Made by a program: the position numbers and the translations under genes
Part shown: positions 1,042 to 1,208 of the stretch, piece after piece
Position numbering within the stretch: the first letter of the stretch is position 1
Layout of the letters: every line of letters begins with the position of its first letter
The notes under the pieces: model-generated
Told to the model about the DNA's origin: nothing
Databases searched by the model: none
What the model saw: only the letters and a program-made list of their open reading frames with translations
Origin: Escherichia coli
Lineage (GTDB): Bacteria; Pseudomonadota; Gammaproteobacteria; Enterobacterales; Enterobacteriaceae
Assembly (NCBI RefSeq): GCF_003334255.1
Contig: NZ_QOWU01000007.1
DNA: 64,000 nt
Strand: one strand, 5' to 3'

Positions 1042-1208
1042 AACCCTCTCCTGAATACAGTGATGTCACTTTTTGTCATTTATGACATGCTTTGCTTGTC
1101 TGTTTTTGATCGTATTTGTAATTTATCGTCAAAAAATTGACAGCCGTCACTTTTTAAACAATTGGTGAAATTAAAATGAACGCATCCCAAAATGTTTAAG
1201 GAATGACC

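Follow-up and report, generated by a model that had tools for sequence, protein, structure and literature searches.

The stretch of DNA that we analyzed (the window, 64,000 nucleotides of an Escherichia coli contig) starts within the sulfoquinovose (yih) cluster. Over the first 3.3 kb it matches E. coli chromosomes with annotated yihT, yihU, yihV, and csqR at 100% identity, and the end of yihT is still present. The sulfolactaldehyde reductase gene yihU, the first gene of the yihUTS operon, is located on the minus strand (145–1041; open reading frame and RefSeq annotation) and the sulfofructose kinase gene yihV on the plus strand (1209–2105). The two genes are divergent and are separated by a control region of 167 bp (1042–1208), as a first-pass annotation of this DNA had described. 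Downstream of yihV on the plus strand follows csqR (yihW; RefSeq name csqR; 2139–2924), and its assignment to the DeoR-family repressors holds, since the protein contains an HTH_DeoR domain (Pfam, E = 4e-23) and a DeoRC domain (E = 2e-49). The solved-structure match is to the DeoR C-terminal domain only (7L6L). The last approximately 15 codons of yihV carry the csqR promoter.

That CsqR acts at this spacer, that csqR is autoregulated, and that CRP is involved is already published. A study by Shimada et al. from 2019 (Microbiology 165:78) is also reported to deal with the control that CsqR (YihW) exerts on these genes in E. coli. As judged by gSELEX, EMSA, and AFM the yihU/yihV spacer is the main target of CsqR (PMC8249747, PMC8006165, PMC12608037), a role that the first-pass annotation had rightly assumed. 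CsqR has essentially this one strong target, also binds its own promoter, and forms large cooperative complexes which are dissociated by sulfoquinovose, sulfoquinovosyl glycerol, and sulforhamnose (PMC8249747, PMC8006165, PMC10991401, PMC12608037); the cooperative binding as large complexes goes along with oligomerization along the DNA (PMC8006165, PMC10991401). Kaznadzey et al. (PMC5816610) mapped the start site of yihV to −25/−27 (1182–1184 of the window), those of yihU to −15, −25, −35, −62/−63, and −82/−92, and that of yihW to −27/−28. In Salmonella, deletion of yihW increases yihU expression about 100-fold, and overexpression of yihVW leaves the activity of the yihVW promoter unchanged (PMC7922415). 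The same article, citing Shimada 2019 and Kaznadzey 2018, speaks of three sites for YihW in this promoter region.

The first-pass annotation had drawn attention to TGTCA/TGACA half-sites in the spacer and had proposed the inverted repeats formed by them as CsqR operators. All of these strings are present, GTCAC at 1065–1069, TGTCATTTATGACA at 1074–1087 (TGTCA-TTTA-TGACA, in the following palindrome 1), and TGACAGCCGTCA at 1138–1149 (palindrome 2). The arms of palindrome 1 are in fact 6 bp long (TGTCAT-TT-ATGACA), and a further palindrome, GTCAA-AAAA-TTGAC, is found at 1128–1141. The pattern TGTCA-N4-TGACA occurs once in the 64-kb window versus 0.02 expected occurrences, and TGAC-N4-GTCA once versus 0.77 expected, which is not significant alone. 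The tetramers GTCA and TGAC are found seven times in the 167-bp spacer versus about 1.3 expected, and within 25.5 kb of the K-12 locus the yihU/yihV spacer contains the densest 100 bp for them. The other yih intergenic regions (ompL-yihO, yihQ-yihR, yihR-yihS, and others) show no such excess, which fits CsqR as a single-target regulator. The yihR-yihS spacer of K-12, which lies outside of the window (locus L069, 9049–9185), carries a GC-rich REP-like inverted repeat with cccctttggggagagggttagggagagggg.

Two longer repeats connect the spacer with the csqR promoter. The 10-mer GTCACTTTTT is present in three copies in the window (1065, 1146, and 2090) versus 0.22 expected, and none of 100 shuffles reached three. 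The 13-mer TGTCACTTTTTGT is found at 1064 and 2089, the second copy being located in the csqR promoter, and is therefore common to both CsqR-bound fragments. A literal search for the motif strings in the literature matched only an unrelated primer. We also considered a structured RNA and rejected this reading, as an Rfam search returned no match at E ≤ 1.

For the comparison with other species we scanned one genome per species and obtained 67 loci. In 63 of these, all from Enterobacterales, yihU and yihV-csqR are syntenic, and CsqR is 74–99% identical; 57 distinct spacers and 61 csqR-upstream regions were aligned, and as the 57 spacers are phylogenetically related, the counts given below do not represent independent events. 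The alignment contains a near-invariant core of 82 bp (1097–1178) with a mean identity of 92% across 56 orthologues, as compared with 74–75% for the first 300 nt of yihU and yihV and 56–64% for the flanks of the spacer. Even Dongshaea (Aeromonadales) retains exactly the same spacing in the core. With so little variation, conservation cannot tell which of its positions serve an operator, a promoter, or CRP. All distant orthologues (Dongshaea 68%, Edaphovirga 71%, Limnobaculum 74%, and a metagenomic contig 70%) as well as a short cassette of E. coli keep the TGAT-n-n-TATTTGT core and also TTTTTGTCAC upstream of the regulator gene. The DNA of this short cassette is about 65% identical to the window version, and its YihW shows 72% protein identity (PMC12608037).

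The short-cassette version of yihU/yihV/yihW is present in 1,327 of 5,353 complete E. coli genomes, about a quarter. In strain KFu022 (locus L068, 3243–3414 and 4290–4320) the central core of its spacer is preserved. The TGTCA direct repeat reads on the opposite strand there (TGACA-N6-TGACA), and palindrome 2 has the weaker form CGAC-N4-ATCAC. A fragment that is 100% identical to E. coli CsqR is found on an 885-bp contig of Bacillus coahuilensis m4-4 (NZ_ABFU01000106.1, locus L054); this is almost certainly an E. coli contamination of the Bacillus assembly.

The first-pass annotation had taken conservation in orthologous spacers as a test of its palindromes, and the two behave very differently. 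Palindrome 1 is complete in only two of the 57 spacers, namely those of E. coli and E. whittamii. Its left arm has an identity of 0.95 across the 57 spacers and its right arm TGACA (1083–1087) one of 0.27, which corresponds to background. Five E. coli strains retain it, and E. albertii has lost it. Palindrome 2 is found in 48 of the 57 spacers, with a variable center. We regard palindrome 1 as a coincidence of this lineage, in which only one half-site is real. This half-site and GTCAC at 1065 together are part of a direct repeat with a period of 10 bp, TGTCAC-TTTT-TGTCA (1064–1078, plus strand). In the 57 spacers, TGTCA-N5-TGTCA is conserved in 40 and TGTC-N6-TGTC in 53, with the N5 and the flanks being variable. 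The repeat is a candidate for an auxiliary CsqR site. DeoR-family regulators typically recognize direct repeats with a period of 10–11 bp, the RhaR regulators included (PMC3870299), and the spacer does contain at least two imperfect direct repeats at this period. E. coli strains differ at position 1061, next to the repeat: the window has G, K-12 MG1655 has T, and Z226-7 has A. With G, a mini-palindrome GTGA-TG-TCAC is formed that K-12 lacks.

The location of CsqR in vivo can be taken from the ChIP-exo data of Gao et al. 2021 (PMC8464067, supplement file 5), who list eight YihW sites. The strongest one has a signal/noise of 168, with yihV as nearest gene, and is located at 4071641–4071681 (U00096.2); the values of the other sites are between 4 and 14. 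The list must use U00096.2 coordinates, since in NC_000913.3 the peak would be placed inside yihS and the site labelled glpA inside glpQ. We converted the peak with the help of the yihV ATG (4073739 in NC_000913.3) and the start site 4071737 (U00096.2) at −25/−27 (PMC5816610). The peak then extends from −122 to −82 relative to the yihV ATG, that is 1087–1127 of the window, and the K-12 sequence read at the converted position confirmed ATGCTTTGCTTGTCTGTTTTTGATCGTATTTGTAATTTATC. Window positions result from subtracting 4070554 from U00096.2 coordinates or 4072530 from NC_000913.3 coordinates. The palindromes do not agree with this location: the site lies between them rather than on them, touching palindrome 1 at base 1087 only and excluding palindrome 2. 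It covers the yihU −10 and start site discussed below. A CsqR oligomer may extend beyond these borders, which would then delimit just its most efficiently cross-linked portion, and flanking contacts of CsqR on the flagged sites are possible; the three YihW sites mentioned in PMC7922415 could include these motifs.

The sole GATC of the spacer (1108–1111) is situated inside the ChIP-exo site. A non-coding GATC assigned to yihU/yihV belongs to the 15 non-coding GATC positions with changing Dam methylation in K-12, the change being reported on both strands in long-term stationary phase (PMC5155068 Table S2). Such a change points to a protein that protects the site in vivo, as expected from a bound protein that competes with Dam.

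Most of the minor YihW peaks (signal/noise 4–14) coincide with RNA polymerase-bound, highly expressed promoters. One of them, just upstream of glpA in K-12 (signal/noise 13.7), adjoins an AACGAAC element (locus L075, about 2225–2240) which we take to resemble a GlpR half-site, and another is near ssuE of the aliphatic sulfonate utilization genes (signal/noise 8.2). These two peaks could be due to cross-talk of paralogous regulators or to ChIP background.

The csqR promoter, the second place at which CsqR binds, lies within the last part of the yihV coding sequence, and an EMSA with CsqR has been reported for the yihV/W fragment (PMC12608037). For the published start at −27/−28 (PMC5816610) the −10 hexamer is TAAAAT (2103–2108, plus strand), overlapping with TATAAA (2101–2106). 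Upstream of it lies a CRP-like site with one perfect half-site, TGTGA-TCAAAC-CCGAT (2067–2082, plus strand). Its center (2074.5) is 28.5 bp from TAAAAT (2103), the same geometry as in the spacer (see below), and this agrees with the conserved CRP site reported at −41.5 of the yihW promoter (PMC5816610). Between the CRP-like site and the −10 there is TTTTTGTCACTTTTTGT (2085–2101, plus strand), a copy of the 1064–1076 element and a candidate autoregulatory CsqR site, which is kept in Dongshaea, Edaphovirga, Limnobaculum, and the short-cassette E. coli. The order of the embedded elements in 2060–2108 is the CRP-like TGTGATC, then TTTTTGTCAC, and then TATAAAAT. The synonymous positions of this part of yihV (2060–2108, the last approximately 15 codons) are nearly invariant across genera, which is explained by the csqR promoter embedded in the coding sequence. 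The inverted-repeat arrangement of the spacer is absent from the csqR promoter; TGTCAC and TGTCACTTTTTGT are present and conserved there. The proposal of a TGTCA-type half-site is therefore plausible, as TGTCAC recurs and is conserved in a promoter bound by CsqR, whereas the palindromic arrangement of these half-sites into operators is mostly unsupported.

Palindrome 2 is the inner part of a 24-bp palindrome, AAAAATTGAC-AGCC-GTCACTTTTT (1132–1155; center 1143.5), a candidate CRP class II site that the two divergent promoters would share. Nine of the ten arm positions are paired, a value which is reached in about 5% of spacer shuffles. At least six lineages have lost the innermost pair of palindrome 2 (G1146 to A), all of them with TGA-N6-TCAC intact, and GAC-N4-RTCAC is present in 56 of the 57 spacers. 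In Edaphovirga, Limnobaculum, and the scan locus of Leminorella (74%) palindrome 2 becomes GTGAC-N4-ATCAC. Compared with the CRP consensus TGTGA-N6-TCACA, the E. coli sequence ATTGA-N6-TCACT has 7 of 10 matching positions, and these three mismatches put it not above chance as a pattern; AGTGA-N6-TCACT of Edaphovirga, Limnobaculum, and Leminorella has 8 of 10 (two mismatches). A scan of the whole window for the consensus with up to three mismatches gave 202 matches versus 218 expected and thus no enrichment, so that a match to the pattern is by itself no proof of CRP. Elsewhere in the window, at 13518–13533, the CRP consensus core is perfect (TGTGACAAATATCACA, 0 mismatches); this site lies within fdhD, some 30 nt from the annotated start, and adjoins the fdoG-fdhD divergent region.

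The assignment to CRP is instead based on geometry, on the pattern of conservation, and on the literature at the level of fragments. As a consensus sigma-70 scan of the spacer found no promoter, we placed the promoters by means of the published start sites. The yihV −10 is TAAAAT (1172–1177, plus strand; 99% conserved) for the start at −25/−27 (1182–1184, PMC5816610). For the yihU start at −62/−63 (1103/1104 of the window, PMC5816610) we infer TACGAT (1109–1114, minus strand) as the −10 hexamer, and all lineages measured retain its TAnnnT pattern. The distance from the palindrome center to the first base of the yihV −10 (1172) is 28.5 bp and that to the first base of the minus-strand TACGAT (1114) is 29.5 bp, each in 59 of 59 sequences; two apparent distances of 22.5 are due to a duplicated TAAAAT which was matched first by the search pattern. 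Both distances are also fixed in orthologues with a CsqR identity of only 68–74%. For a CRP site centered at −41.5 and a −10 hexamer at −12 to −7 a distance of 29.5 bp is expected. Calculated from the published starts (1182–1184 and 1103/1104, PMC5816610), the center is at −40.5/−41.5 for both promoters, so that on both sides the palindrome is found at the class II position (about −41.5, or 28.5–29.5 bp from the −10). One CRP dimer could therefore activate both promoters. In EMSA experiments CRP bound the fragment 943–1278, at whole-fragment resolution (PMC5816610), and yihUTS is listed as Crp-activated, at the level of the operon rather than of a site (PMC8085971). Taken together, palindrome 2 fits a shared class II CRP site better than a CsqR operator, with an overlapping CsqR contact being possible, and CRP would then be the protein that uses the palindrome.

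These observations lead us to a working model which we consider somewhat more probable than not: a control region made up of four conserved modules, in which CsqR binds cooperatively to TGTmA direct repeats phased by about 10 bp and CRP binds to the palindrome. The modules are the direct repeat (1064–1078), the near-invariant core with the in vivo cross-link of CsqR (1087–1127), the 24-bp palindrome (1132–1155), and the yihV −10 (1172–1177). A CsqR oligomer would contact TGTmA-like units of the same orientation in steps of about 10 bp, in the flank TGTCA at 1064 and 1074, and in the core TGTCT at 1097, TGATC at 1107, TGTAA at 1117, and CGTCA at 1127; the units at 1097, 1107, and 1117 are those within the ChIP-exo site. 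The corresponding units of the csqR promoter would be TGATC (2069), CGATC (2079), TGTCA (2089), and TGTAT (2099), with TTTTTGTCACTTTTTGT as related element. CsqR at 1087–1127 would cover the −10 and the start (−62/−63) of yihU and adjoin the −82/−92 cluster, and when bound it would block the yihU promoters and either border on the CRP site or extend over it, until it is released by sulfoquinovose. Such a position over the yihU promoter fits the strong yihW-dependent repression of yihU in Salmonella. The model predicts that scrambling of TGATCGTATTTGTAAT (1107–1122) would impair CsqR binding.

Reading the units as direct repeats matches the 10–11 bp architecture of the DeoR family, the 41-bp width of the ChIP-exo site, and the cooperative oligomerization seen by AFM and EMSA. 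An autocorrelation of the region 1060–1135 at lag 10 gave z = 2.6 (p = 0.012) for a lag that was chosen after inspecting the sequence, and the autocorrelation at the csqR promoter showed no significant 10-bp periodicity. The best TGTCA copies (1064 and 1074) are located outside of the ChIP-exo interval, which contains degenerate units only, and this makes the assignment of the half-site uncertain. We would give TGTmA as half-site a roughly even chance, and both the identity of the half-site and the register of the direct repeats are proposals made from the sequence. A more far-reaching version would be a rigid bidirectional switch, in which one CRP site activates yihUTS and yihV-csqR, CsqR polymerizes on the TGTmA array and not on the palindromes, and the geometry has been frozen from the Enterobacterales to the Aeromonadales (Dongshaea); we hold this version only tentatively and rate it somewhat below an even chance.

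The reading proposed in the first-pass annotation, that both inverted repeats are discrete operators and each is occupied by one CsqR dimer, has several points in its favor. The E. coli DeoR operator is itself palindromic, GTCA/TGAC tetramers are strongly enriched in the spacer, palindrome 1 is unexpected by chance in the window and kept within E. coli strains, and palindrome 2 is conserved in 48 of the 57 spacers. Moreover, the region is the target of CsqR (PMC8249747, PMC8006165), and the secondary citation in PMC7922415 speaks of three YihW sites. Against this, the published ChIP-exo site (1087–1127) lies between the palindromes, palindrome 1 is missing in 55 of the 57 orthologues despite 74–99% identity of CsqR, the csqR promoter is bound by CsqR and has TGTCAC without such a palindrome, and in the at least six lineages in which the innermost pair of palindrome 2 is broken it is TGA-N6-TCAC that is kept. 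The reading is thus at odds with both the in vivo position and the pattern of conservation. Each of the two outcomes that the first-pass annotation had named as speaking against its idea, footprints elsewhere in the spacer and a lack of conservation, has therefore come about in part, and the lack of conservation has already partly refuted palindrome 1 as an operator. We consider discrete palindromic operators improbable. Less improbable, though still unlikely in our view, is a dual use of palindrome 2, with CRP and CsqR competing for 1132–1155, yihV being repressed mainly by a block of the activator and yihU by way of the central array. In favor of such a competition are the identity of GTCACTTTTT at 1146, 1065, and 2090 and the overlap of GTCAC (1146–1150) with the yihV −35 region as well as with the right half of the CRP-like site. 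CsqR and CRP both bind the fragment (PMC5816610, PMC12608037), and CsqR oligomerizes along DNA (PMC8006165). However, no CsqR ChIP-exo signal was called over 1132–1155, and the T-tract following GTCAC is variable at site 1, so that the identity of the 10-mer is partly a product of the T-rich context. In addition, the yihVW promoter of Salmonella did not change its activity upon overexpression of yihVW (PMC7922415).

Finally, the motifs could be mere by-products of AT-rich overlapping promoter elements such as TTGACA −35 boxes and T-tract UP elements. TTGACA at 1137–1142 is indeed a perfect −35 consensus, several yihU starts have been reported across the spacer (PMC5816610), and a palindrome with 9 of 10 pairs is, as mentioned, reached in about 5% of shuffles. 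But this TTGACA has no −10 partner at 16–18 bp, and the spacer gave no promoter in the consensus scan. The invariant arms with a variable center and the exact spacing to both −10 hexamers in distant taxa are the pattern of a dimeric factor, and CsqR ChIP-exo, CsqR EMSA, and CRP EMSA all show protein binding. We therefore regard this explanation as very improbable and retain the model of a phased CsqR array next to a CRP palindrome.

With respect to the known systems, our analysis concerns the same locus, regulator, and spacer as the published CsqR regulation of the sulfo-EMP pathway (Kaznadzey et al. 2018; Gao et al. 2021), and there is biologically no difference. GlpR operators, to take a relative from the DeoR family, are tandem. 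The proposed array resembles the tandem operators of the DeoR family in its imperfect direct repeats of 10–11 bp, in the number of about four units (about 40 bp), in the cooperative oligomer, and in the sugar-derived inducer; it differs in the TGTmA unit, which would be specific for CsqR, is proposed from the sequence, and has modest support for its register. The palindrome is similar to class II CRP promoters in the TGA-N6-TCAC core, the A/T flanks, the distance of 28.5–29.5 bp to the −10, and the lack of a usable −35, and CRP binding as well as Crp-dependent activation have been reported, at the level of the fragment and the operon. Compared with the usual class II promoters, a single site would serve two divergent promoters symmetrically, and the left half-site of E. 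coli (ATTGA) is weak. The orthologous divergent operons yihUTSRQPO and yihVW of Salmonella share an almost identical spacer core and the approximately 100-fold repression of yihU by YihW; they have been studied for the O-antigen capsule and not for sulfoquinovose catabolism, and the operator is unmapped there.

The biological picture of sulfoquinovose regulation is little changed by these results, and their value is in guiding experiments. Mutagenesis of the operator should be directed at the direct repeat (1064–1078) and the core (1097–1127) and not at the TGACA arm that is specific for E. coli, and the palindrome at 1132–1155 should be treated as a probable CRP site common to both promoters. 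With its invariant geometry and its 82-bp core the region may also be of use as a compact bidirectional promoter cassette that is inducible by sulfoquinovose and sensitive to catabolites. For the DeoR family the yihU/yihV spacer could serve as a test case for how a DeoR-type repressor reads tandem repeats.
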